NCBI GenBank assembly: GCA_016197205.1
Contig: JACPWG010000096.1
Coordinates: forward strand, 29,902 to 93,901
Source: Planctomycetota bacterium
GTDB taxonomy: Bacteria > Planctomycetota > MHYJ01 > WSZJ01 > JACPWG01
Direction of reading: 5' to 3'
Length of the DNA stretch: 64,000 nucleotides
Shown: positions 44,030 through 57,759 of the stretch, piece by piece
Layout: the number at the start of each line of letters is the position of its first letter
Position numbering within the stretch: position 1 is the stretch's first letter
The notes under the pieces: model-generated
What the model saw: the letters and a program-made list of their open reading frames with translations, nothing else
The model's database searches: none
Told to the model about the DNA's origin: nothing
Translations under genes and position numbers: made by a program

Positions 44030-46783
44030 ATGCTGCGCTACGAGGACTTCCTGCTCGGACGCCGTGCCTGCGCCGCGGGCCTGGTTTCCGAGGACCGGCT
44101 CTGGGCGCTCTACCGACGTCTGGAGCACGAGCCCGACGGGCTCGGCCTTGCCGAACTGCTCGTCGCAGGCGGCGTGGCCACGCGCGAAGAACTGGGCGCG
44201 CTGGCGCGCGCCGGCCCAGGACCGGCGGGAGTCGCACAAGTCGCCGACGGCGCCCCGACCCTCACGGACTCCGGCTGCGCGACGGCGCAGCCTTCCCATT
44301 CGTCCCCGCCCCCCGCGTCGTCCGCCATCCTGAACCTCCCGCTCCCGCCCATCCCCAGCGAGGCGTCGACGCTGCTCGGCTCGTCCGAGCTGAACCTCAT
44401 GCCGGGCCCGACCGGCGGCGCGGCGGCCGTCCTCTCGCAAGGACCGGGCGCGGCCCCGAATCCTGGTCGCCTGTTCGGCAAGTACGAGCTCCTGGACGTG
44501 GTCGGGCATGGGGGGATGGGCGTCGTCTACAAGGCCCGGGACCGCGACCTGGGCCGAGTCGTGGCCTTGAAGACCCTGCTCGCCGGCTCCACGCAGGATC
44601 CGAACCGCATCGCTCGCTTCTACCGCGAGGTCCGGATGGCCGCTTCCCTGTGCCACCCGGCCATCCTCCCGATTCACGACGTCGGCTGCGAGGGCGGCTT
44701 CCATTATTTCACGATGGACCTCGTCGAGGGGGAGACGCTGGAGGCGCGGCTCGCCGCGGGTCGTCCCGAGCTGCGGCAAGGGGTCGAGTGGGTGCGGGGG
44801 ATTGCGGAGGCCTTGGATTTCGCGCACGCGCAAGGGGTCGTGCATCGGGACGTGAAGCCCTCCAACATTCTCATCGACCGCGCCGAGCGACCGTTCCTGA
44901 GCGATTTCGGACTTGCGCGCGGGATTCAAGACGCGACGGAGCTGACCGCGAGCGGGGCGGTCGTGGGCACGCCTTCGTACATGGCCCCCGAGCAGGCCGG
45001 GGGCGTGGGGCCGATCGATGGGCGCTGCGACGTCTTTTCGCTTGGGGCGGTCCTCTACAAGGTGTTGGCCGGCGTCCAGGCGTTCACCGGCGACTCGCCG
45101 GCCGCGGTCATGCACCAGACGCTGCTGTGCGATCCGCCGCCGCTTCGGAAGCGGGACCCGTCCCTGCCGCGGGACCTTGAGGTGATTTGCCACAAAGCGC
45201 TTGAAAAGGAACCCGCGCGTCGCTACGCGACCGCGGGTCATTTCGCGGCGGACCTGGGCAGGTACCTGGCGGGGGAGCCGATCCTGGCGCGACCGCTCGG
45301 CGTCGGCGCGCGGCTCGGACGGTGGGCGCGTCGCTTCAAGCTGCCGCTCGCGGCCGCGGTCGTGGCGGTTGCGGCCGTGGGGCTTGCGTGGCGGGAGCGC
45401 GCGGGGCGCGAGGCGCAGGCGGACTCGATGCTGGAGGAGGCGGCCGGGGCCGTGGAGCGGTTCGAGGACGCGGCGATGCGCCATCCGATGACGCCCGCGG
45501 TCCGGAAACTGCTTGCGACGCAGCCGTCGGGGCTTCTGGATCGCCTGCTCGTCGAGGCCCCGGAGTTCGGTCCCCTCTACGCGTGGCGCGGCAAGCTCCA
45601 CGACCTCGTCGGCGAAGAGGCGCGCGCCGAGGACGACTATGGCGAAGGCTGCCGGCGCGGCGCCCGCTACGCGATCGTCTGGTTTCTCCGCGGTACCCAC
45701 CGGATCGCGCGCTACGTGCGCGTTCGCGGCCTCCCGACCACGCGCGTGGAGGCGAATCATCTGGAGTTCGTGCCGCCGCGGGAGGAGACGCCGGACGAGC
45801 GCGCGTGTCGCGAGGGCGGGCTTGCGGACCTGGAGGAGGCGCTCGCCTCCGGCGGCGGGCGCGGCCTCGTCGGGCGGCAGGAGACGAAGCTGGCGCGGGC
45901 GATGAGCGCGCTCTACGCCGGGCGGGAGGGCTGCTACGAGTCGGCTCTCGGGCTGCTCGAGGGCGTGACGCTGCCGACCGCGGACCGTCTGCGCGGCATC
46001 GCGCTTTACCATCTGCAGCGCTTCGGAGAGGCGCGGGAGGCCTTCGGCCGCTGCCTGGCCGAGTGGCCGGAGGACGTGGAGGCCTACCATCTGCGAGCGC
46101 ACGCGGCCTACGCCTCGGGGATCGCCGAGGCCGCGCGCGGGGAGGATCCTCGGGCCTTCTTCGAAAAGGGGATCGCCGACCTGGACGAGGCGCTTCGGCG
46201 GGAGCCGGGCCGCGTGAAAGTGTACAACAGCCGCGGGGCCATGCGTCACCACCTGGCCCAGGTCGAGGCGAGCGCGGGCATCGACCCGCGCGGCGAGTTC
46301 GAGAAGGCGTGCGCCGACTACGGCGAGGCGATCACGCGGGACGCCGGCTTTGTGCTTGCGTACACGAACCGCGGTTTCGCCCGGCTCGAACTCTCTTCGG
46401 CGATCGCGGCGCACGACGAGGACCCCACGCCCGCCCTTCGTCTCGCCCTCGCGGATCTCGACCAGGCCGTGCGCCTCGCGCCGGAATTCGCCGACGCCTA
46501 CAACAACCGCGGCAATGCGTGGAAAAGCCTGGGGCTGGCGCAGGAGCATCGGGGCGAAGACGCGTCCGAGAGTTTCCGTCGCGGCGAGACCGACTACAAG
46601 GAGGCCGTCGCTCGGGGAAATCCGACCGCGTACCTGAACCTCGGCGTGCTGCTGCGCTGCATGGGGCGCAACCAGGACGCCATCGCCGCCTTCGAGGCCG
46701 GCGCGCGCGCCGCCCCCGCGCACGCCGACTGGGCGCGGCAGCAACTGGACTTCACGCGGCGCTTGATCGGCGGCGGGAAGTGA
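44030..46783 (+). CDS. Ser/Thr protein kinase with C-terminal TPR repeats.
   Basis: Motifs GHGGMGVVYKA, HRDVKPSNIL, DFGLA and GTPSYMAPE are present, followed by TPR-like repeats. Confidence 0.85.
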   Translation: MLRYEDFLLGRRACAAGLVSEDRLWALYRRLEHEPDGLGLAELLVAGGVATREELGALARAGPGPAGVAQVADGAPTLTDSGCATAQPSHSSPPPASSAILNLPLPPIPSEASTLLGSSELNLMPGPTGGAAAVLSQGPGAAPNPGRLFGKYELLDVVGHGGMGVVYKARDRDLGRVVALKTLLAGSTQDPNRIARFYREVRMAASLCHPAILPIHDVGCEGGFHYFTMDLVEGETLEARLAAGRPELRQGVEWVRGIAEALDFAHAQGVVHRDVKPSNILIDRAERPFLSDFGLARGIQDATELTASGAVVGTPSYMAPEQAGGVGPIDGRCDVFSLGAVLYKVLAGVQAFTGDSPAAVMHQTLLCDPPPLRKRDPSLPRDLEVICHKALEKEPARRYATAGHFAADLGRYLAGEPILARPLGVGARLGRWARRFKLPLAAAVVAVAAVGLAWRERAGREAQADSMLEEAAGAVERFEDAAMRHPMTPAVRKLLATQPSGLLDRLLVEAPEFGPLYAWRGKLHDLVGEEARAEDDYGEGCRRGARYAIVWFLRGTHRIARYVRVRGLPTTRVEANHLEFVPPREETPDERACREGGLADLEEALASGGGRGLVGRQETKLARAMSALYAGREGCYESALGLLEGVTLPTADRLRGIALYHLQRFGEAREAFGRCLAEWPEDVEAYHLRAHAAYASGIAEAARGEDPRAFFEKGIADLDEALRREPGRVKVYNSRGAMRHHLAQVEASAGIDPRGEFEKACADYGEAITRDAGFVLAYTNRGFARLELSSAIAAHDEDPTPALRLALADLDQAVRLAPEFADAYNNRGNAWKSLGLAQEHRGEDASESFRRGETDYKEAVARGNPTAYLNLGVLLRCMGRNQDAIAAFEAGARAAPAHADWARQQLDFTRRLIGGGK

Positions 46784-46867
46784 GAGGGAGAATCGTCACG
46801 AGCTGTTCATGGGGACGACCGGAGAGCAGAAGCTCTACACAACAATTTCCGAATTCCCGTCACGATT

Positions 46868-46898
46868 CCTGGGGGCGCGGGCCTCCGGCCCGCGCGAA
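46868..46898. repeat. REP-like palindrome, copy 2, lying between the Ser/Thr kinase and the NACHT gene.
   Basis: It is identical to the 31-mer at 51427..51457 in inverted orientation. Confidence 0.6.
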
Positions 46899-46998
46899 CT
46901 GGCACTTGTCCTCCACTTCCCCGCAACCGCGGGCCCAAAGGTGACCAGTGTTCGTCAACGCGGTACTCGCCACCGTGGCGCCCGGAGCCGAGCCCGGC

Positions 46999-47028
46999 TT
47001 GACGCCGCCCTCGGACTGCGCGTAGAAT
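46999..47028 (+). promoter_or_regulatory. Near-consensus sigma-70 promoter (TTGACG-N18-TAGAAT). It predicts a leaderless transcript for the NACHT gene.
   Basis: The -10 element ends 7 nt before the ATG at 47035. No Shine-Dalgarno sequence is present. Confidence 0.4.
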
Positions 47029-47034
47029 GAAGTC

Positions 47035-49314
47035 ATGACGCCTCCCCAGCCGAACCCCAATCTGCCCGTCGCGGCTTGTTCCCCCGCGCCTCCACCGGCG
47101 GGCTCTGTCGCCGACCACCCGCTCTGGCGGGCCATCTGCGCCTACGCTCGCGGTCCGGAGATCGCCCGCCTTCGGTATGTCGGTTTTCGCCTACAAAAAA
47201 AAGGTCCGCCCAGCCTCCCCATCGAGGAGGTCTTCGTCCCGCCCGAGGTGGAGCTGATGGTGCGCGGCTTGGCGCATGAGGCGGCCGAGAAGCCCGCGAG
47301 CCCGCGGAGCGACTCGACCTCGCCGGCGCCAACGAACAAGCCCTGGGCGGGGCACACGCCGGAGCGGTTGGTCTCGGCGTCCTTTGTCGACGTGTTTCGC
47401 GAATCGCGAGGCGTCGTCCTTCTGGGGGGGCCTGGCTCGGGCAAGACCACGGTCGTGCGTCGCCTTGCGACCGCCGCCGCGGCGGGGGCGCCGGCGTTGG
47501 AGGCTGCGTTCGGGGTGCGGGAGGAGCTGCTACCGTTGCCCGTCAGCGTCGGACTGCTCGCCGAACATCGGCGGCGGTCGGCCGTCGGCATCACGGTAGT
47601 TGACGCGATGGCGCCGTACCTCGCCGCACGCTGCGCCGCACGCGAGCCGGAGCTCCACGCCTTTCTCGAAGACCGGCTTGCGAGCGGCGCATGCCTGGTG
47701 CTCCTGGACGGCCTGGACGAAGTCCACCGCGAGGAGCGCAGGGCCGTGTCCCAATGGCTGGAGGGCTTTGCGAACCGTTACCCGGCAAATCGATTCGTCG
47801 TCACCTCCCGCGTCGTCGGGTATGCGCACTTCCGCTTGCCGAGCGGGGTCGAGGTGACGCTCCGCGCATTCAGTGACGCGCAAGTCAAGGCCTTCGTCAG
47901 GAGCTACTTTCGCGCTTGCTGGGCCTGGGAGAACGAAGATCCGGCCGGGTCGGGGTCGGAGACGGCAGCGATGGACTTTTTGGCCGCCCTCCGGGCCAAC
48001 CCGCGCATGGCGGGGCTTGCCCGAAGTCCCTTCCTCCTGTCGGCCCTCGCGCTCGTCCACCGTGCCGAGGGGAAGCTGCCGCGTCATCGGGTGGCGGCCT
48101 ACGACATGTTCGCTCGCGCCCTGTGCGAAACCTGGGACGAGGCGCGACGCCTGTCCCCTGTGTCCCCCGGTACGGGGGCGACCGCGACCGCGTCCGTGTC
48201 GTACGAGGAGGAGGCGATCCCCATCCTCGGAGAGCTGGCGATCCGAATGCACGAACGGTATCCGGCCGGCATCGCCCCCGATGAGTTTGTCCGGCGAACC
48301 CTGGAGCAGGCCCTCCGCGAGCGGGTGGGCCTGTCAGAAGCCGACGCGCGCCCGGCGGTGGACCGATTCCTGAGCTTGGTCACGGAGCGCTCGCCGATTT
48401 TGCAGGAGCGCGGACCCGGGAACTGGGGATTCTTCCACCTGACCTTTCAGGAGTTCTTCGCTGCCCTGGGACTGCACTACCAGGACCGCTTCGAGACCGT
48501 TGCCTGGGAGCATCTGTTTCACGCCCGTTGGCGCGAGGTGATTCGGCTTGGCCTCGGGTATCAGGCTATCGTGCAGAAGCGTGGGCGGGCGACGCAGACT
48601 TTCGTCGAGCGTGTGTGGAGGCAGGGGCGGGACTCCCAGCGGCCATGGGTGACAGAAGTCTTGAGGAAGCACGTCCCGCTTGCGGTGCTCCTCGCCGCGG
48701 AGGCGGGGGACGCGCTCTCCCCAAACGTTCAACAGGGGTTGGTGCACGATTTCGTGCAATGGGCGCCCCTGCGGCACCCCGAGATTTCGAGCTCCCTGAT
48801 GACAGACCTCGCCCAGAGTGTCCTTAGGGAGCAAATCGTGAGGCTCTTCCCCTTCGATCCCTGCTATCCCAACGTGCAACGCCTCCACTACCTGGAAGAC
48901 TATGCTCGTGAGCCAGGCGACCGCCCACGCGCCTCTAGAGTAGTCAGCGTATTGACAATCAATGCAGGGGGTAACACGCTCTGGGTGTCCGAGAATGAGG
49001 TGAATGAGGCCTTGAGTGCTGTTCGCCCAGGGAGCACGGCCATTTGCACTGCGCGGAACGCGCTGGCTGCCGCGATCGAGCCTCAGGAGAAGATTGTTGC
49101 AGCGCTGATCCTTGCCCGTCTGGGCGGATTGGAAGCTGTGCCGGGCCTCCTCGATCTCCTCAACTCGGACCACGAAGTGCTTCGGAACGGTGGTGTTTGG
49201 ATTCTCGGTGAGTTGGCCGCCGAGGTCGCCGTGCCCGCTCTCTTGGGGCCAGCAAAGGCCGGGGATCAGGACGCGCTCGCCGCCCTCTGGAAGATCTCCG
49301 AGGCCCTGGAATAG
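47035..49314 (+). CDS. NACHT-domain NTPase (bacterial STAND) with C-terminal HEAT repeats and only a short N-terminal segment.
   Basis: Walker A is LLGGPGSGKTT. Walker B is LVLLDGLDEV. Sensor-1 is FVVTSR. The C-terminal repeats read ILARLGGLEAVPGLLDLLNSDHEVLRNGGVWILGEL. Confidence 0.8.
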   Translation: MTPPQPNPNLPVAACSPAPPPAGSVADHPLWRAICAYARGPEIARLRYVGFRLQKKGPPSLPIEEVFVPPEVELMVRGLAHEAAEKPASPRSDSTSPAPTNKPWAGHTPERLVSASFVDVFRESRGVVLLGGPGSGKTTVVRRLATAAAAGAPALEAAFGVREELLPLPVSVGLLAEHRRRSAVGITVVDAMAPYLAARCAAREPELHAFLEDRLASGACLVLLDGLDEVHREERRAVSQWLEGFANRYPANRFVVTSRVVGYAHFRLPSGVEVTLRAFSDAQVKAFVRSYFRACWAWENEDPAGSGSETAAMDFLAALRANPRMAGLARSPFLLSALALVHRAEGKLPRHRVAAYDMFARALCETWDEARRLSPVSPGTGATATASVSYEEEAIPILGELAIRMHERYPAGIAPDEFVRRTLEQALRERVGLSEADARPAVDRFLSLVTERSPILQERGPGNWGFFHLTFQEFFAALGLHYQDRFETVAWEHLFHARWREVIRLGLGYQAIVQKRGRATQTFVERVWRQGRDSQRPWVTEVLRKHVPLAVLLAAEAGDALSPNVQQGLVHDFVQWAPLRHPEISSSLMTDLAQSVLREQIVRLFPFDPCYPNVQRLHYLEDYAREPGDRPRASRVVSVLTINAGGNTLWVSENEVNEALSAVRPGSTAICTARNALAAAIEPQEKIVAALILARLGGLEAVPGLLDLLNSDHEVLRNGGVWILGELAAEVAVPALLGPAKAGDQDALAALWKISEALE

Positions 49315-49318
49315 CCGG

Positions 49319-49978
49319 TCACCGCCGCCGCGATAGCCGAAACACTCCCACGAATTCGCCGTCGTCGCTGCGGACCTTGCGCAACGCCTCAGCGATCTGG
49401 CGCAGGTCCCGCGCATGCCGCGCCTCCCCGTGAAGCGCCGGCCGCGCCCGCAGTTGTGCTCGCAACTCACGCGCCTGCCTCCGGAGATCCCGGTAGGCGC
49501 GCCATCGCTCGGCCCGGCGGCTGGCGAGCACCTCCCGGTTCAAGTCGAGCCCGTCCGGAGCGACCGTCTCCTTTCCTGCCCCGTCAATGCCGACGAGCGT
49601 GATGAGCCCCATGCCACCCCGAACCTCCCGAGCGCGCAGGTGGATGGCGGGGTCGAAGCCCGCAGCGCAGGGGTCGAGGGGATGACGACATGCGTCCTTG
49701 CTCCTCCCGTTCATCACTTCCTTGATTTGGTTACACCCGTGACAGGACAGCCGGAGATTTTGCCAGTCGAATTCATGCTCTGGCCAAAGTCCCACGCCCT
49801 TGGGCAGGTAGTGTTCCCGCTCCGGGGAGTCCGTTTCGCTCTCGCAATACGCGCACTTGTTCCGGAATATCCCCAGGAGCCACCGCAGCACAGGCTTCTC
49901 GGGGTAGTCGTCCATCCTTCCACTCGCCAGTACCGCGAGGGCCTCCGCGGGTGGCGGTCCCAGCGTTACTGGCCTCAT
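49319..49978 (-). CDS. HNH endonuclease of the Septu PtuB-like family (associated with AAA_21-type ATPases).
   Basis: The motifs CAYCE...EHYLPKG...W.NLRLSCHGCNQIK are present. The ATGA overlap links it to the upstream ATPase. Confidence 0.7.
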   Translation of the reverse strand: MRPVTLGPPPAEALAVLASGRMDDYPEKPVLRWLLGIFRNKCAYCESETDSPEREHYLPKGVGLWPEHEFDWQNLRLSCHGCNQIKEVMNGRSKDACRHPLDPCAAGFDPAIHLRAREVRGGMGLITLVGIDGAGKETVAPDGLDLNREVLASRRAERWRAYRDLRRQARELRAQLRARPALHGEARHARDLRQIAEALRKVRSDDGEFVGVFRLSRRR

Positions 49979-51306
49979 GGTGTCCCCGCGCCACTCATCG
50001 GAGGGAGCTGCTCCGGCGGGCTGAGAGTCTCAAGCTGCCCCTCCCACTCGTCGATCCGCCGCTGCTGCTCCGCCGTCGGGGTGGCGTCCCCGATCTCCGC
50101 CAGGAGTGCGGACAGCTTCCCGAAGACCTCCATCACCTTCACGGGCAGGTCCGACACGCCGAAGAGGTCGGTGATGATGCGGCTGATGGTCTTCGCCAGC
50201 GGCGCCCCGGTGTCCGAGCGCACGGTTTCACAGGTGACGCCGTCCTTCGCACGAACCAACCGATGGACGCGATACGAGCGGTTCAGGCCGACCAGCCCCG
50301 TGAGGACCAGTGGCGAGTGCGTCGCCACGATGAACTGCGCGTTGGGCAACAAGCTGGAGAGCCGGGGAATGACCTGCCGTTGCCAGCTCGGGTGAAGGTG
50401 CGCGTCGAGCTCGTCGATCAGGACGATGGCCGGCGCCTCGAAGGCCTCCTCCCGAGGCTGAGGCTGGGAGTAGAGGACCCCCTCCGCGACGCGCAAGGCC
50501 AGCGCCAGGATCGCCTGTTCCCCATCCGAGAGCATGTGGAAGGGGAGTTCCGCGTGCGGGCCGCGGATCATTACGTGTCCGACCTGCGTGTGGAACGGGA
50601 GCAATTCGTACCCAGGGAGTAGCCTTCGAATCGCGGCTTGATAGGCAGTGAATTCGCGCAGGCACTCCGACCGCCCTTCCTTATCGTCGATCACTTGGCG
50701 CATGTATGCCGCGACCACGGAGCTCAGTGGGCCCGCAGCGCTGTCGGTACCGTTGAGCGCGCGATTGTAATTCTCCGATCTCACCGCGACGAGGCGTGGC
50801 GGCAGCACGTATTTCGCCTCCATCCGACCTGTCTGTAATCCTGCGGGCCGGATCGACGGCACGAAAACGAAGGGTGTGGTCGCTTGGGCGCCCTCGGCCG
50901 GCTCTAGCGGACCCGCTCGGGAGGATGTGCGCGTGCTGTCGAAGCCGTACTCCGAGAGGAGAGTCGTTTCGCTTCCCTGCGCCAAGGTCTCGCGCATCGT
51001 GAACCACGCGCTCTTGGCCCCTCCGGCCATCATGGTACTCACCTGGTGGCCCGTAACGTCGGGCAGGTCCTCGAGGCGACCCTCGAGCCGCGCGAAGACC
51101 TCGGCTGTGGTCATGCCCGCCCGCATGAGCGATTCAGGGTACTGCTGGCTCGCAAGGCCGCGGTTCAGATAGATCGCGAGCAAGCGCAGGATCGTGCTCT
51201 TCCCCGACCCGTTGTCACCGATGAGGACGTTCCAGGCGGGGTCAAGATCGAGGGTTGCGCGACCGACGCACTTGAGGTTGGTGAGTTCCAGGCTGGCGAA
51301 GCGCAA
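49975..51306 (-). CDS. ATPase of the AAA_21/ABC-type (Septu PtuA-like).
   Basis: Walker A is GDNGSGKST. LSDGEQ and the Walker B IVLIDELDAHLHP are present. The H-loop is ATHSP. The likely TTG start at 51306 gives MRFASLELTNLKCV, and GGAGAG lies 5 nt upstream. A GTG at 51384 is an alternative start. Confidence 0.7.
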   Translation of the reverse strand: MRFASLELTNLKCVGRATLDLDPAWNVLIGDNGSGKSTILRLLAIYLNRGLASQQYPESLMRAGMTTAEVFARLEGRLEDLPDVTGHQVSTMMAGGAKSAWFTMRETLAQGSETTLLSEYGFDSTRTSSRAGPLEPAEGAQATTPFVFVPSIRPAGLQTGRMEAKYVLPPRLVAVRSENYNRALNGTDSAAGPLSSVVAAYMRQVIDDKEGRSECLREFTAYQAAIRRLLPGYELLPFHTQVGHVMIRGPHAELPFHMLSDGEQAILALALRVAEGVLYSQPQPREEAFEAPAIVLIDELDAHLHPSWQRQVIPRLSSLLPNAQFIVATHSPLVLTGLVGLNRSYRVHRLVRAKDGVTCETVRSDTGAPLAKTISRIITDLFGVSDLPVKVMEVFGKLSALLAEIGDATPTAEQQRRIDEWEGQLETLSPPEQLPPMSGAGTP

Positions 51307-51426
51307 GGGGGCTCTCCGAAACGTGTGGATTCGCGGACAGCACGGACCCGGGGAGCGCGTGGCCCGTGGACGGAATTTGAACACGGTCCTCAGCCGAGTT
51401 ACGGCAAGCCGTAGCTCTGGTGGCCG

Positions 51427-51457
51427 TTCGCGCGGGCCGGAGGCCCGCGCCCCCAGG
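51427..51457. repeat. REP-like palindrome, copy 3 (inverted), lying upstream of the PtuA-like ATPase.
   Basis: Its reverse complement matches 46868..46898. Confidence 0.6.
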
Positions 51458-51691: not shown

Positions 51692-53779
51692 GTGACGGAA
51701 CACAAGCACACCAACCGGCTCGTCCGGGAGACGAGCCCGTACCTCCTCCAGCACGCCCACAACCCGGTGGACTGGTACGCCTGGGGGCCCGACGCGCTCG
51801 AAGCGGCGAAGAAGGCGGACAAGCCGATCTTCCTGTCCATCGGCTACAGCGCCTGCCACTGGTGCCACGTGATGGAGCGCGAGTCGTTCGAGAACGAGGA
51901 AACGGCCGCGCTCATGAACCGGCACTTCATCAACGTGAAGGTCGACCGCGAGGAGCGGCCGGACCTGGACGAGATCTACATGGGCGCGGTGCAGCTCCTG
52001 ACCGGGCGCGGGGGCTGGCCGATGTCGGTCTTCCTGCTGCCGGACCTGCGCCCGTTTTTCGGCGGGACGTATTTCCCGCCCCGCGACGGAATGGGCATGC
52101 CCGGCTTTCCGACCGTGCTGGAGCAAATCGCGCGTGCCTTCAAGGCTCGTCGACTGGAGCTTGGGCAGAGCGCGGAAAAGATCGTCGAGGCGGTCCGCGA
52201 CATGTGCGCGATTCAAGGCGAGCCGGGGGCGGTGGACGCCTCCCTGCTCGACCGCGCATGCGAGGGACTCGTCAAGGGCTTCGACCGCGAGCACGGCGGC
52301 TTCGGCCACGCGCCGAAGTTCCCTCCGAGCATGGAACTGAACCTGCTCCTGCGGCGGCATCGGCGCGGCCGCGACGCGCGCTACCTCGAGGTCGTGGAGA
52401 CGACGCTCGACCGCATGGCCCGGGGCGGCATGTACGACCAGGTCGGCGGCGGCTTTTGCCGCTACTCGACCGACGAGCGCTGGCTCGTGCCGCACTTCGA
52501 GAAGATGCTCTACGACAACAGCCTCCTCGCCCGCACCTACCTCGCCGCCTGGCAGGCGACCGGCAAGCCTTTCTACGCCCGGGTCGCTCGGGAAACGTTG
52601 GACTACGTGCTGCGCGACATGAGCCGCGCCGGAGGCGGGTTCTTTTCGGCGGAGGACGCGGACAGCGAGGGCGTCGAGGGCAAGTTCTACGTATGGGAGC
52701 CCGCCGAAGTCCTCTCGCTCCTCGGCGACGAAGACGGCCGGCTCTTTTGCGAGTTCTACGACATCACGCGCGAGGGGAACTTCGAAGAGAAGAACATCCC
52801 CAATGTCCCGACGCCCATCGAGGAGTTCGCCCGTGCCCGGAAGCTGGACGCCGAGACGCTCGTGGCGCGACTCGACGCCGGGCGCGCGAAGCTGCTGACG
52901 GCGCGTGCGCGGCGCGTGCGGCCCGGGCTGGACGACAAGCTCCTGACGAGCTGGAACGCGCTCATGGTGCGCAGCATGGCGGCCGGCTGGCAGATCCTGG
53001 GCGACCGCCGGTATCTCGACGCGGCGATTGCGACCAGCCGCTTCCTGCTCGACACGCTGCTCAAGGACGGCCGGCTGCTCGTGACGTGGCGGGCCGGCCA
53101 GGCGAAGCTGAACGCCTACCTCGACGACTACGCCTTCCTCCTCGCCGCGCTCCTCGACCTCTACGAGTCGACGTTCGACCGCGTGTGGCTGGACGAGGCG
53201 CTCCGCCTGAACCGCACCGTCCTCGAACGCTTTTGGGACGCGAAGGAGGGCGGGTTCTTCTTCACCTCGGATGATCACGAAACGCTGCTCGCGCGCACCA
53301 AGGCCCCATATGATGGCGTGATCCCTTCGGGGAATTCCGAGATGGCCATGAACCTGCTGCGGCTGTCGCTCCTGACGGGGGACGCGGACCTGAGGGAGCG
53401 GGCCGGGCGGATCCTCTCGCTCTTCCACGAGAGCATGGCCTCCTCCCCGCGCGGCTTCGCGAACATGCTCTGCGCGCTGGATTTTTTCCTCGGCCCGACG
53501 ACCGAGGTCGCGCTGGCCGGGCCCGCGGGTTCCGCCGAAGTCGAGGGTTTCCTGCGCGCCATCCACGGACGCTACCTGCCGAACCGTGTGCTCGCGTTGA
53601 CGGACCCCGGCGACCCCGGCGCCGCCGACCTGGAGCGGACCGTTCCACTCCTCGCAGGCAAGCGGCTCGCGGACGGCAAGCCGGCGGCGTACGTCTGCAC
53701 CGCGAGCACGTGCAGCCTGCCGGTGACGAGCGTGGAGAAGCTGGCGGAGCAGCTCGAGGCCGGAGGGGGCGGGGAGTGA
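51692..53779 (+). CDS. Thioredoxin-domain protein of the YyaL/DUF255 family (thioredoxin-like plus six-hairpin glycosidase-like fold).
   Basis: The conserved N-terminus is [55 protein letters not shown]. Confidence 0.85.
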
Positions 53780-53823: not shown

Positions 53824-53866
53824 GAAAAAAAGACGGCGACGGGCCCGCGCGCGCGGACCCGTCGCC
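53824..53866 (-). terminator. Rho-independent terminator for the His/Cys lipoprotein gene.
   Basis: The stem GGCGACGGG..CCCGTCGCC is followed by T7 on the minus strand. Confidence 0.6.
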
Positions 53867-53919
53867 GGACGATCAACGTTCCGAACAAGTCCGCCGTGCG
53901 CGGCTCGCTCGACTGCGCC

Positions 53920-54705
53920 TCAGTGGTGTTTCTTCTTTCCCCTCAGGTCGATCGTCACGGTCCATTGACCATTTGCGAAGAAGTGCCCGCACCCCGGTCC
54001 ATGCACGTGGCTCTCGACGAGCACCCACTTGCCGCACCCGGCGTCGTAGCAGTGACCGCACTCGGCGCTGTGGACGTGCCCGACGGGGATTTCGACGTAG
54101 AGCCCCGGGATCGCGACTTCGACGGCCGGTTCGTCGACCACGACGGCCCACTGGCCGTCCAGGAACACGTGGCCGCAACCCGCGCCGTGGACATGGCCCG
54201 CCTGGAGCAGCCAGGCGTGCCCGTCCCAGTAGTGGCCGCATGCGGCCGAATGGACGTGCACCGCCGGTACGCTCACGCCTACTTCCAGGGAAGGGGCGCC
54301 GAGCGAGAGCGTCCACTGGCCGTTCACGAAGTAGTGTCCGCAGCTCGGCCCGTGTACGTGCTGGGCCAGCACGACCCAGCCGTGGCCGTCCCAGCAATGT
54401 CCGCAAGTGGCGCTGTGGGCGTGACCCAGGGGAACTGTGACGTACGCCGACGGGAGGGTGACGGCCACCGTGGGCGCCCCGACGGCGAGTATCCATCGGC
54501 CGTCACTGTAGAAGTGGCCGCACCCGGGCCCGTGCGCGTGATTCGCGATCACGACCCACCCATGTCCGTCCCAGTAGTGTCCGCACGTCGCCGTGTGCAC
54601 GTGCCCCTCGACGAGTATGTGCGGTCCGTCGACGGTCGCGGTACAGCCGGCGAGCGCGAGCGCCAGCCCGATCCAGACAACCAGTACACTTGTACACTTG
54701 AGCAT
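53920..54705 (-). CDS. His/Cys-rich lipoprotein built from eight 29-aa units (HxH-x3-CGH-x4-GxW). It is a putative metal-binding protein.
   Basis: AGGAGG RBS. The lipobox is LALALAGC. The repeats read HVHTATCGHYWDGHGWVV / HAHGPGCGHFYSDGRW and so on. Confidence 0.65.
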   Translation of the reverse strand: MLKCTSVLVVWIGLALALAGCTATVDGPHILVEGHVHTATCGHYWDGHGWVVIANHAHGPGCGHFYSDGRWILAVGAPTVAVTLPSAYVTVPLGHAHSATCGHCWDGHGWVVLAQHVHGPSCGHYFVNGQWTLSLGAPSLEVGVSVPAVHVHSAACGHYWDGHAWLLQAGHVHGAGCGHVFLDGQWAVVVDEPAVEVAIPGLYVEIPVGHVHSAECGHCYDAGCGKWVLVESHVHGPGCGHFFANGQWTVTIDLRGKKKHH

Positions 54706-55140
54706 GACTTCCTCCTGTCCTATGGGAGACGCTCCGCCCCGCTTCGAGCCCATGCCCGGAGGGACGGTCGAAAGTTCGCCTGTCGCATCGCGGCTCATTT
54801 CCGTTGCCCTCCTGGTCCCTGTCCGGATTCTCCAGACTTCGTGGCCAGCAAGTTGAACATTAGAAAGCTGTTGTTACTGTATAATATATTCGATATTTGT
54901 GAAATGTCAATCAGAATGTGAGTGCGCAGAGTGCGCGAGGCCCGTCCGCAAGGTCTCTGCTCGAGCGGGCCCGCAAGGTCCTTTCGATGGGTGCGGTAGG
55001 GGCGCCCCTTGTGGGCGCCCAGCGGCGGACGCCGCTTGCGAGACCGGCGGGCACAACGCCCTACGCCTCGATGGGTGAGTAGGCTGCTTGCGGCCGGCAG
55101 CAGGGCGTAGGAGCCATCCTGAGAGGGCTGGCCCTGACTC

Positions 55141-55249
55141 CTGGAATGGTAGCAAACGCTGAACATTCGCGGAACGCCGACCTGCGTGTACTTCTGCTGA
55201 GTCGTGCCGCAGCCTGGAACGGTAGCAAACCCTGAACATTCGCGGAACG
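55141..55249. repeat. Two 36-bp direct repeats, CTGGAAYGGTAGCAAACSCTGAACATTCGCGGAACG, 73 bp apart, ending 37 nt upstream of the CPBP protease start.
   Basis: Direct reading. Possible paired operator sites or a duplicated small-RNA seed. Confidence 0.5.
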
Positions 55250-55285: not shown

Positions 55286-56209
55286 ATGTCTGAAACCCTT
55301 GCAACATTTTTCACACGCGTGGATCTGGGAGTGCTCGCGGTCACTTTCTTGCCCCTGCTCTTGGCGCAAGTCGCGCTCGGGATCCCAAGGGCAGCCGCCT
55401 GGATCGAGGCGGCGCTGCGCGCTCGCGCGCGCGCGTGGGCATGGTGCGGCGGCGGCGTCGCCGCGCTCTTCCTGCTTGCCGGTCTTGCGGTGGGCAATTT
55501 CGATCCGTATGCGACCGCCATCGTCGCAGCCGGGACGCTGGCCGTGCTCGGCGTCCTCCGCGTCGTCCCGCGGGGCACTGCGTCGCTGACGGCAGCGGAT
55601 GCGGCGGCGTGGCTCTTGCTCTGGATCCCGTTCGATCTCCGGTGGGCGACTGCGCTCTGGCAGGGGCCGCGCGACATCGCCTACAACTGGCTCGCGGTCG
55701 CCGTCTCCGTCCTGGCCGTCGTCGGCTGGGGCGTGGTCCGCGGCCTGCCGGGGCTCGGCTACCGCCTCCTCCCGACACGCCGCGACGTCTCCTCCGCCTT
55801 CCTCGCCCTCCTCGGGCTCGCCGCGACCTGCATTCCGCTCGGACTCATTGTCGGGTTCCTCCACTTCCCGCCGACAAGATCCCCGCGCTGGGAGATGCTC
55901 CCGCTCCAGTTCGTCGGCCTCGTGCTGACGGTCGCCATCCCGGAGGAGCTGTTCTTTCGCGGCATTCTCGAAAACGGGCTGCGGCGCACGCTCTCCGCGC
56001 CTCGCCTCGCCGCCCCGCTGGCCTCCCTTGCCTTTGGCCTCATGCACTGGAACAACGCGCCCGACACCCGCGCGCGCGTCATCTATTGCTCGCTCGCCAC
56101 CGTCGCCGGCCTGTTCTACGGCTGGGCCTACCGGCGCTCCGGCAGCCTCGCCTCGGCGATCCTCGTGCACGCACTGGTCGACCTGCTCTGGGACGCCGCC
56201 TTGCGCTGA
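55286..56209 (+). CDS. Intramembrane glutamic endopeptidase of the CPBP (CAAX protease/Abi) family.
   Basis: EELFFRG, the FGLMH motif and the second His motif HALVDLL are present, with 7-8 transmembrane segments. Confidence 0.75.
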   Translation: MSETLATFFTRVDLGVLAVTFLPLLLAQVALGIPRAAAWIEAALRARARAWAWCGGGVAALFLLAGLAVGNFDPYATAIVAAGTLAVLGVLRVVPRGTASLTAADAAAWLLLWIPFDLRWATALWQGPRDIAYNWLAVAVSVLAVVGWGVVRGLPGLGYRLLPTRRDVSSAFLALLGLAATCIPLGLIVGFLHFPPTRSPRWEMLPLQFVGLVLTVAIPEELFFRGILENGLRRTLSAPRLAAPLASLAFGLMHWNNAPDTRARVIYCSLATVAGLFYGWAYRRSGSLASAILVHALVDLLWDAALR

Positions 56210-56810: not shown

Positions 56811-56937
56811 TGTGCGCGTCGGGGAGGCGCCGCGAGAACGGTCGCGAAGCGGCCGAGGGCGCGCGTCTCCGTAGCAACGCGTCCCCTCCTACCACCTCAT
56901 TCCTGATCCGTCCCTTGCTGCATCGAGACGGGTGCGC

Positions 56938-57759
56938 ATGTCCGAAACACCCGAGGCCGCTGCGCGCGAGAAGATCGATCGCCTTCTCAACCAGTGCGGG
57001 TGGGACGTCCAGTCCCACGCGCAGATGAACATTACCGCGTGCCCCGGCGTCGCGGTCCGGGAGTTCCCGCTCAAGACCGGCTTCGCCGACTACCTCCTCT
57101 ACGCCGACGCCAAGGCCATCGGCATCGTCGAGGCGAAGCCCGAGGGCCACACCCTCACGGGCGTCGAGGTCCAGTCGGCCAAGTACACCTCGGCTCTCCC
57201 GGCCGGCGTTCCCCGCTACCACCTGCCGCTGCCGTTCGCCTACGAGTCCACGGGCGCCGAGACGCAATTCACGAACAACCTCGACCCCAGCCCTCGCAGC
57301 CGGGAGGTCTTCGCCTTTCACCGGCCCGAGGAATTGATTCGACTTGCCAAGCTCGACTCGCAGGTCCGGGCAAACCTCGGCAAGCTGCCGGTGCTGGACG
57401 CCGGCCGGCTCTGGCCCGTCCAGAGCATGGCCATCAACACTGCGGAGAGGGCCCTTCGGGGAATCGCAGTGGGACGAAAGAACTGGCTTTTCGCAGGCAG
57501 CGACGCGGGCGGCGCACATGCCGCGGTGTTCTACACCTTGATCGAGAGCTGCAAGGCCGTGGGCGCGGAGCCCTTCGCCTACCTGCGCGACATTTTTGCG
57601 CGCATCGCGGCCTATCCCGCGCGGCGCATCGCCGACCTGATGCCAGTAAACTGGGCGGCAGCCCGACGCGCTGCGACAGTGGCGCCCCCGGCTGCTGTCG
57701 CCCCCCTCCTCGGTGGCCTCGTGCTGCCCTCCGGAGAGGCCGCGGTCGCGCAATCGTAG
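56938..57759 (+). pseudogene. Mosaic remnant. The N-terminal about 150 aa are the N-terminal domain of a type I restriction enzyme R subunit (HsdR_N). The C-terminal about 95 aa are the C-terminal fragment of an IS66-family transposase.
   Basis: KIDRLLNQCGWDV...FPLKTGFADYLLY..IGIVEAK is HsdR_N. ...GRKNWLFAGSDAGGAHAAVFYTLIESCKAVGAEPFAYLRDIFARIAAYPARRIADLMPVNW is the IS66 TnpC C-terminus. The junction is near 57400-57475. Confidence 0.65.

Follow-up and report, generated by a model that had tools for sequence, protein, structure and literature searches.

A Planctomycete lipoprotein with eight H-x-H-x3-C-x-H knuckles, a candidate periplasmic metal-binding protein

The lipoprotein gene and its repeats

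The DNA analyzed here is a stretch of 64,000 nucleotides (nt) of contig JACPWG010000096.1 from a Planctomycetota bacterium, referred to below as the window. Its minus strand encodes a small lipoprotein, rich in histidine and cysteine, that carries eight copies of a nine-residue motif, H-x-H-x3-C-G-H. This candidate metal-binding protein is the subject of the present study. The coordinates of its gene, of the associated signals and of the neighboring features are collected in Table 1.

The longest open reading frame (ORF) at the locus spans 53920..54798 on the minus strand. The public model of the protein (P0001, ‘hypothetical protein HYZ53_16745 [Planctomycetes bacterium]’, 292 amino acids (aa)), to which the product is 100% identical, begins at the upstream ATG of this frame (54798). 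The ATG at 54705 is likely to be the true start, on three grounds. A Shine-Dalgarno sequence (AGGAGG, 54711-54716, minus) is located 5 nt before it; the GC content at third codon positions (GC3) is 0.83 from this ATG on, compared with 0.68 across the preceding 31 codons and 0.86-0.91 in the flanking genes; and in all homologues the signal peptide comes first, without extra leading residues. The upstream ATG was rejected on the basis of GC3 and the N-termini of the homologues. The public model is probably overlong by 31 codons (54706-54798, minus).

The N-terminus of the protein follows the lipoprotein pattern [LVI][ASTVI][GAS]C, with MLK leading into a hydrophobic stretch and L-A-G-C21. Four promoter-like sites were seen where 0.2 would be expected. 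The putative sigma-70-like promoter of the gene is situated in an island of 42-45% GC (54800-54950), set in a window with a GC content of 0.688, and implies an untranslated leader of ~170 nt that contains no Rfam element. As it has its own promoter and a terminator just past the stop codon, the gene looks monocistronic. Both the lipoprotein signal and the terminator had been proposed in a first-pass annotation of this DNA; they are borne out by the lipobox and by the GC-rich stem and T-run that follow the stop codon.

Exact copies of the motif start at residues 35, 56, 95, 116, 150, 171, 210 and 233. No further copy occurs elsewhere in the window in any of the six frames, and when the protein was shuffled 20,000 times at constant composition, it had 0.003 motifs on average and at most 2. 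Two versions alternate along the chain, four A-type knuckles (HxH[ST]AxCGH[YC][WY]D..W) and four B-type knuckles (HxHG[PA][GS]CGH....G[QR]W), with a spacing of 21-23 aa from A to B and 34-39 aa from B to A. The resulting architecture is one of four ~45-aa modules, each composed of two motif-plus-beta-hairpin halves, with Pro/Val-rich linkers of 10-15 aa. The first-pass annotation described an eightfold iteration of a uniform 29-aa unit; the eight motifs stand, whereas the period is an average over the two-half modules and their linkers.

The mature chain of 241 aa contains 30 His, 24 of them in motifs, as well as 12 Cys, 11 Trp and no Met. The 12 Cys, a number given correctly before, comprise the lipid-carrying Cys21, the eight motif Cys, and C104, C219 and C224; the earlier count of about 24 His, in contrast, is too low for the whole mature chain. 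Three of the modules align at the DNA level as 135-nt stretches of only 67-72% identity, which indicates that the module duplications are old. Tandem Repeats Finder detected no tandem array of module size.

Table 1. Coordinates of the lipoprotein gene, its parts and signals, and neighboring features in the window.
Feature	Coordinates	Strand	Details
Lipoprotein coding sequence	53920..54705	minus	261 aa + TGA stop
Signal peptide (aa 1-20) and lipobox Cys21	54643..54705	minus	MLKCTSVLVVWIGLALALAG then C; lipobox L-A-G-C
Module 1, aa 32-76	54478..54612	minus	HVHTATCGH + hairpin, HAHGPGCGH + hairpin
Module 2, aa 92-136	54298..54432	minus	HAHSATCGH, HVHGPSCGH
Module 3, aa 147-191	54133..54267	minus	HVHSAACGH, HVHGAGCGH
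Module 4, aa 207-253	53947..54087	minus	HVHSAECGH, HVHGPGCGH; then tail LRGKKKHH
Putative sigma-70-like promoter	54883..54910	minus	TTGACA-16 nt-TATATT; 11/12 consensus matches
Intrinsic terminator	53824..53867	minus	15-bp stem (13 G-C pairs), 4-nt loop, then TCTTTTTTTC
YyaL/DUF255 gene	51692-53779	plus	PF03190, E 3.6e-76; convergent with lipoprotein gene, terminator between
CPBP gene	55286-56209	plus	PF02517, E 2.1e-20; divergent from lipoprotein gene
Two 37-nt direct repeats	55140-55176, 55213-55249	plus	CCTGGAAYGGTAGCAAACSCTGAACATTCGCGGAACG; 95% identical, 73 nt apart, chance expectation 0
Ser/Thr kinase with TPR repeats	44030-46783		
NACHT-HEAT STAND NTPase	47035-49314		
AAA_21/AAA_15 (AbiEii/OLD-like) ATPase	49975-51384	minus	

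Ligand conservation and predicted fold

The evidence for metal binding is provided by the conservation of the motif in an alignment (A1) of 77 sequences that were not selected on the motif. Two B motifs, m8 and m2, occur in every member and are the best aligned. All four ligands of m8 (residues 233/235/239/241) are present in 77/77 sequences, invariably in the pattern HHCH. In the B motif m2 (56/58/62/64), the four positions are all His or Cys in 76 of the 77 sequences, with one partial set and no case of complete loss. Motif m7 (210-218) retains all four ligands in 46 sequences, lacks all of them in 25 (reading, for example, P-P-N-Y) and is partial in five. Position 3 of the first A motif (residue 37) is more often Cys (52 sequences) than His (20), and the ligand patterns over 298 motifs are HHCH (227), HCCH (47), HHCC (19) and CHCH (5). 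The x positions vary freely across the family. Conservation beyond the ligands is confined to Gly, Pro and the aromatic residues of the hairpin core, with no sign of another active surface. Because His and Cys replace each other at the fixed positions 1, 3, 7 and 9, and because the ligands are lost on an all-or-none basis, each knuckle is probably a four-ligand metal site.

The same data bear on a metal-free explanation, according to which the motif Cys pair would form disulfides between neighboring motifs and the His would serve in pH sensing or as charges. The protein is extracytoplasmic, conserved Cys of secreted proteins are often disulfide-bonded, and the two motif Cys of a module are 21 aa apart and could be near in space. 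However, a disulfide would not tolerate the interchange of His and Cys at positions 3 and 9, nor would it account for the joint disappearance of all four positions. Odd numbers of Cys per module, as found in B-only members or in modules that combine HCCH with HHCH, also argue against such pairing. We consider this explanation improbable.

If the knuckles bind metal, then Zn(II) is the most likely ion, since interchanging His3Cys and His2Cys2 ligand sets are typical of zinc sites; Ni or Co is possible. The absence of Met from the mature protein makes Cu(I) trafficking a less likely role. The multivalent metal binding put forward in the first-pass annotation is hence well supported by the conserved, interchangeable and co-lost ligands, and of the three metals it named, Cu, Zn and Ni, zinc would be the most probable.

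Its other suggestion was a redox relay. In the form considered here, electrons would pass along a chain of Cu-loaded His3Cys sites, perhaps in concert with the neighboring thioredoxin-fold protein YyaL. His/Cys ligation is known in copper centers, and the YyaL gene is adjacent. Nevertheless, the mature protein is devoid of Met, whereas a Met ligand or a Met-rich character is the norm among periplasmic Cu(I) proteins and type-1 sites. Apart from CGHC it lacks motifs of the CxxC or CxxCH type, and similarity was found neither to cupredoxins nor to thioredoxins. Comparison with cupredoxins and Met-rich Cu(I) proteins (CusF, CopC) likewise gave no family or structure match. The YyaL gene is moreover convergent and separated by a terminator, and YyaL occurs in 0/12 homologue neighborhoods. 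Such a relay is highly improbable.

The fold was modeled with AlphaFold2 (AF2) without metal ions. In the whole-protein model, each module is predicted to form two beta hairpins that begin at the last ligand. The predicted local distance difference test score (pLDDT) is 80-93 for module 1, about 80-85 for module 2 and about 82-85 for module 4; confidence is low in module 3, where the alignment columns are mostly gaps. A model of the module alone, derived from 96 module sequences, also consists of two beta hairpins (pLDDT 86.4). Searches of the PDB with Foldseek, for which small repeat units are hard, gave no match at E < 1 for either model. The noise-level matches were to fiber shafts, choline-binding repeats and LIM domains (LIM E 3.7-8).

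A regular and confidently predicted hairpin fold would also suit a metal-stapled scaffold, in which structural Zn(II) shapes the hairpin units, much as it does in zinc fingers or LIM domains, and the protein has a mechanical or adhesive task at the membrane surface as a rigid rod, a spacer or a binding module that uses its exposed aromatic residues. Conservation of the ligands is as strict as in structural zinc sites, and the noise-level Foldseek matches are beta-hairpin repeat proteins. On the other hand, no residues are conserved past the ligands and the hairpin core, so no binding surface is marked. The relatives described below bear on both sides of this question.

Relatives, a sister motif and the genomic neighborhood

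The protein does not belong to a known family according to the resources searched. No model of Pfam or NCBIfam reached threshold with the window protein, nor did any Pfam model with the 77 members, and searches of the PDB by single sequence and by module profile gave no real match. The sole profile match, 11 residues long (E 4.1), was to HVHTPLCGH at the beginning of a PHP histidinol phosphatase and was taken as chance. The comparison with known metallochaperone families that had been recommended in the first-pass annotation was negative in all three resources; with regard to the HMA/CopZ type, the window protein has no MxCxxC motif and no PF00403 match. The hairpin following the knuckle (HYWDGHGW) resembles the YWDG..W element of DUF2510 and DUF2502, which show weak matches in 5/77 and 2/77 members, respectively (best E 4.5e-5 and 4.3e-4). 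The window protein itself is below both gathering thresholds (15.9 vs 24 bits and 13.6 vs 27), with matches that cover 8-12 hairpin residues only. Literature searches for the motif strings found no publication, and a keyword search on Planctomycete His-rich lipoproteins found nothing relevant.

A word-indexed search retrieved 77 relatives, of which the closest is 40% identical. When 1.84 billion representatives were scanned in full with a hidden Markov model (HMM), 407 clusters (50% identity) were found at E<=1e-3 and 252 at E<=1e-10. Membership of the family was defined by at least one B-type HxHGxxCGH knuckle followed by a ..G.W hairpin, together with a significant match to the family HMM; the window protein has both features and is the top match of the family profile (E 2.9e-66). 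Nearly all named sources of the relatives are metagenome-assembled genomes (MAGs) of Planctomycetota. The loci confirmed in GTDB are from Planctomycetota, including Phycisphaerae, and from single MAGs of Verrucomicrobiota and Thermoanaerobaculia. On this sequence evidence, the HxHGPGCGH-repeat proteins appear to constitute a previously undescribed family centered on Planctomycetota, within a broader category, multi-site extracytoplasmic metal-binding repeat proteins, that is known already.

Family members differ widely in size and copy number. They contain 1-9 motifs, and at least eight are present in only 4/223, which makes the window protein an unusually high-copy member. A lipobox-like motif was found by a rough regular expression in at least 114/218 members. 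The smallest members, of ~80 aa, are one-module lipoproteins (P0202-P0223, e.g. P0204, P0206 and P0220) in which an HGHGHG-type tail often directly follows the lipid Cys; at least three His are found within 14 residues of this Cys in 28/114 lipoproteins. At the other extreme, relatives of 500-850 aa carry 6-8 units of 22 aa in tandem (HxHGxGCGHFFYxGxWHxFP), flanked by a disordered Ser/Arg-rich N-terminus and a C-terminal TPR domain (P0143, P0158, P0160, P0161, P0182, P0191, P0198, P0130, P0154, and L012 4633-7173). Every long relative with an intact N-terminus has a signal peptide, which places the knuckle domain outside the cytoplasm. Two other members, P0078 and P0092, have in common an N-terminal domain of ~250 aa with no assigned family.

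A sister motif occurs in a different family. A locus in a Kofleriaceae MAG (L020, 5465-5812), initially counted with the relatives, encodes a 115-aa protein without signal peptide that contains two HVHGxxCGH knuckles, each followed by ..HGDHVDYL.DGHLH... This family comprises over 4,000 clusters (90% identity), has two units of the general pattern HxHGxxCGH...HGDHxDYLxDGHLH and is about 70% identical across phyla. It has 41 invariant columns, mostly His, Cys or Asp, and the nine-residue knuckle is invariant and present twice per protein. Among cultured bacteria, members occur in Paludibaculum, Labilithrix and Acanthopleuribacter; neither Pfam nor NCBIfam has a model that matches them. UniRef gives some the title ‘Threonine dehydratase’, which looks like a misnomer. 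Alignment of the 115-aa family to the module profile with hhalign gave 93% probability (E 2.5e-7) over only 14 columns, and we therefore regard the motif, and not the domain, as common to the two families.

The genes beside the 115-aa family were surveyed in L020 and L030-L109 (80 metagenome loci). In L020, the gene is adjoined by that of an ArsR/SmtB metalloregulator (77 bits vs a cut-off of 55), and an ArsR-like gene is present in 28/80 metagenome loci. Where enough upstream sequence was available, a same-strand ArsR/SmtB-type gene ends 25-132 nt before the 115-aa gene in 21/66 loci. This linkage provides indirect but independent support for the handling of metal by the knuckle.

In the window, the lipoprotein gene is flanked by genes of the YyaL and CPBP types, as stated in the first-pass annotation and corroborated by Pfam. 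The duplicated repeats reported before the CPBP gene are also present in two copies, although they measure 37 nt and not 36 bp. No further copies occur in the window, and Rfam has no match to them. Both lie in a stretch without coding bias, 230-340 nt beyond the lipoprotein promoter on the CPBP side, with 37 nt between the end of the second and the start codon of the CPBP gene. A regulator of this gene might bind the two as a pair. A sigma-54 promoter within them was considered and rejected, given that GG and GC stand 3 nt too close together.

The adjacent and divergent arrangement of the lipoprotein and CPBP genes, with both repeats in the intergenic region, raises the idea that these elements form one unit, for example with the protease processing or sorting the lipoprotein under a common operator. 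The position of the repeats, just upstream of the CPBP start, instead assigns them to the CPBP gene. Furthermore, no CPBP gene is found beside any of the 12 homologues examined, and the C-terminus of the lipoprotein (LRGKKKHH) has no transmembrane sorting signal. A unit of this kind is hardly credible. More generally, the link to YyaL and CPBP suggested in the first-pass annotation does not hold: the convergent and divergent genes are separate transcription units, and neither family is seen in the 12 homologue neighborhoods.

No other common partner recurs in those neighborhoods. In four mutually syntenic loci (L003, L005, L010 and L029; that of P0019 is annotated Phycisphaerae), the gene is beside a 374-aa DAO/FAD oxidoreductase and ruvC-ruvA-ruvB. 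A functional link was set aside, as only these syntenic loci display the arrangement and DAO and ruvC remain together in L003, where the lipoprotein gene is found on the other side; the adjacency is probably lineage synteny. The 183-aa gene that adjoins a HEAT-repeat protein in L007 was considered as a paralogue, an apparent second copy, and proved unrelated.

Further from the lipoprotein gene, the region 44030-51384 of the window holds a run of signaling or defense-type genes (Table 1), none of which is metal-related. Just before the YyaL gene, positions 51386-51429 (minus) give a sub-threshold match to the Rfam whalefall-1 small RNA (22 bits vs a gathering threshold of 37, E 0.047) that is probably due to chance. 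In an ORF at 56932-57759 (plus), an N-terminal fragment of a type I restriction HsdR protein is joined to the final ~70 residues of an IS66 transposase; the ORF looks like a decayed insertion remnant and is likewise unrelated to metals.

Proposed role and significance

In the mechanism we propose, each unit would be a nine-residue knuckle, H-x-[H/C]-x3-C-x-[H/C], that leads into a short aromatic hairpin (..[YF][WYF]xxGxxW..). Positions 1, 3, 7 and 9 of each knuckle would chelate one divalent metal, in the window protein through three His and one Cys, and up to eight ions would be held beside the membrane by the lipid-anchored periplasmic protein. Metal binding would itself be the function, and how many units a protein has (1-9 in the family) would determine its capacity. 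We tentatively favor a role of the window protein as a periplasmic eight-site metal-binding lipoprotein of this type, serving as a tethered high-capacity buffer or sponge. This role is preferred because only the sites and the fold are conserved, because copy number is plastic, and in view of the His-Gly tails of the minimal members and the ArsR-linked sister motif.

Several observations weigh against this role. Near-absolute conservation of the ligands and a well-defined fold are equally compatible with purely structural sites, and the TPR-fused relatives suggest a scaffold role. The lone exposed Cys of each site could oxidize in an oxic periplasm. The putative promoter shows no inverted repeat that would suggest an operator of the Zur, Fur or NikR type, and across 13 neighborhoods, including the window, there is no conserved metal transporter, regulator or chaperone. 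Only in L011 are an HMA protein and a P-type ATPase encoded, about 3.4 kb from the family gene.

The lack of a conserved metal-homeostasis context also favors the scaffold described above, as does the organization of the longest relatives, in which a tandem array set between a disordered N-terminus and a TPR domain is typical of scaffolds. Such a role is opposed by the highly plastic copy number and by the His-Gly tails of the single-module members and the ArsR-linked sister motif, which indicate metal handling. All considered, a metal-stapled scaffold is nearly as likely as a metal buffer.

For a buffer or sponge, the best functional analogue is found in the streptococcal polyhistidine-triad (Pht) proteins (Strep_his_triad, PF04270), which are also surface- or lipid-anchored and consist of several short units of beta strands, with one compact His motif in each. 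Each Pht unit binds one Zn(II) tetrahedrally through the three His of HxxHxH and a Glu, and the proteins scavenge Zn and pass it to AdcAII (PMC3842936). The window protein, for which ligand conservation suggests one metal per unit as well, differs in several respects. It has neither HxxHxH nor a PF04270 match at E<=1; its motif, H-x-H-x3-C-x-H, includes a Cys and confines all four ligands to nine residues; and its host is a Gram-negative-type Planctomycete. In addition, phtD is in an operon with adcAII, whereas no adcAII-like zinc-uptake neighbor is present in the window or the 12 homologue neighborhoods.

Other metal-binding proteins offer more partial parallels. As in zinc knuckles, zinc ribbons and LIM domains, four interchangeable His/Cys ligands would hold a tiny beta hairpin, and units may be in tandem. 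However, a ligand spacing of 1, 3, 7, 9 fits no CxxC-based knuckle, and the site is extracytoplasmic rather than cytosolic or nuclear. No zinc-finger or zinc-ribbon model of Pfam matched the window protein, and Zn_ribbon_5 was found in 2/77 members at E 0.035 only. In Hpn of Helicobacter and in the metallothioneins SmtA/BmtA, dense His/Cys ligands buffer metal with a capacity that scales with ligand number. These proteins are cytosolic and are either of low complexity or contain one metal-thiolate cluster, in contrast to the discrete, folded, mostly-His and periplasmic sites proposed here. The window protein has one Cys per His-dominated site, no PF02069 match and no sequence similarity to Hpn or SmtA/BmtA.

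A wider proposal, held more loosely, is that H-x-H-x3-C-x-H may be a new self-contained four-ligand knuckle that has been used at least twice, in the tandem hairpin repeats of secreted Planctomycete proteins and in the very widespread ArsR-linked 115-aa cytosolic protein. The window protein would then represent a structurally new class of eight-site, tethered periplasmic metal store or buffer.

Both motif and fold are novel and lend themselves readily to experiment; the host bacteria themselves have yet to be cultured. The motif ties the proteins to the far larger 115-aa ArsR/SmtB-adjacent family, part of which is in cultured bacteria, and this makes direct testing possible. Should the sites prove purely structural, the family would still provide a new zinc-stabilized repeat fold, albeit of narrower interest. 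If each knuckle binds metal, the sites would be among the most compact natural four-ligand sites known, in a tunable tandem array of one to nine. The few extracytoplasmic multi-metal proteins, such as Pht and the His-rich loops of ZnuA-type proteins, would thereby be joined by a new fold and motif. The sites would also offer a first handle on periplasmic metal handling in Planctomycetes, of which little is known.

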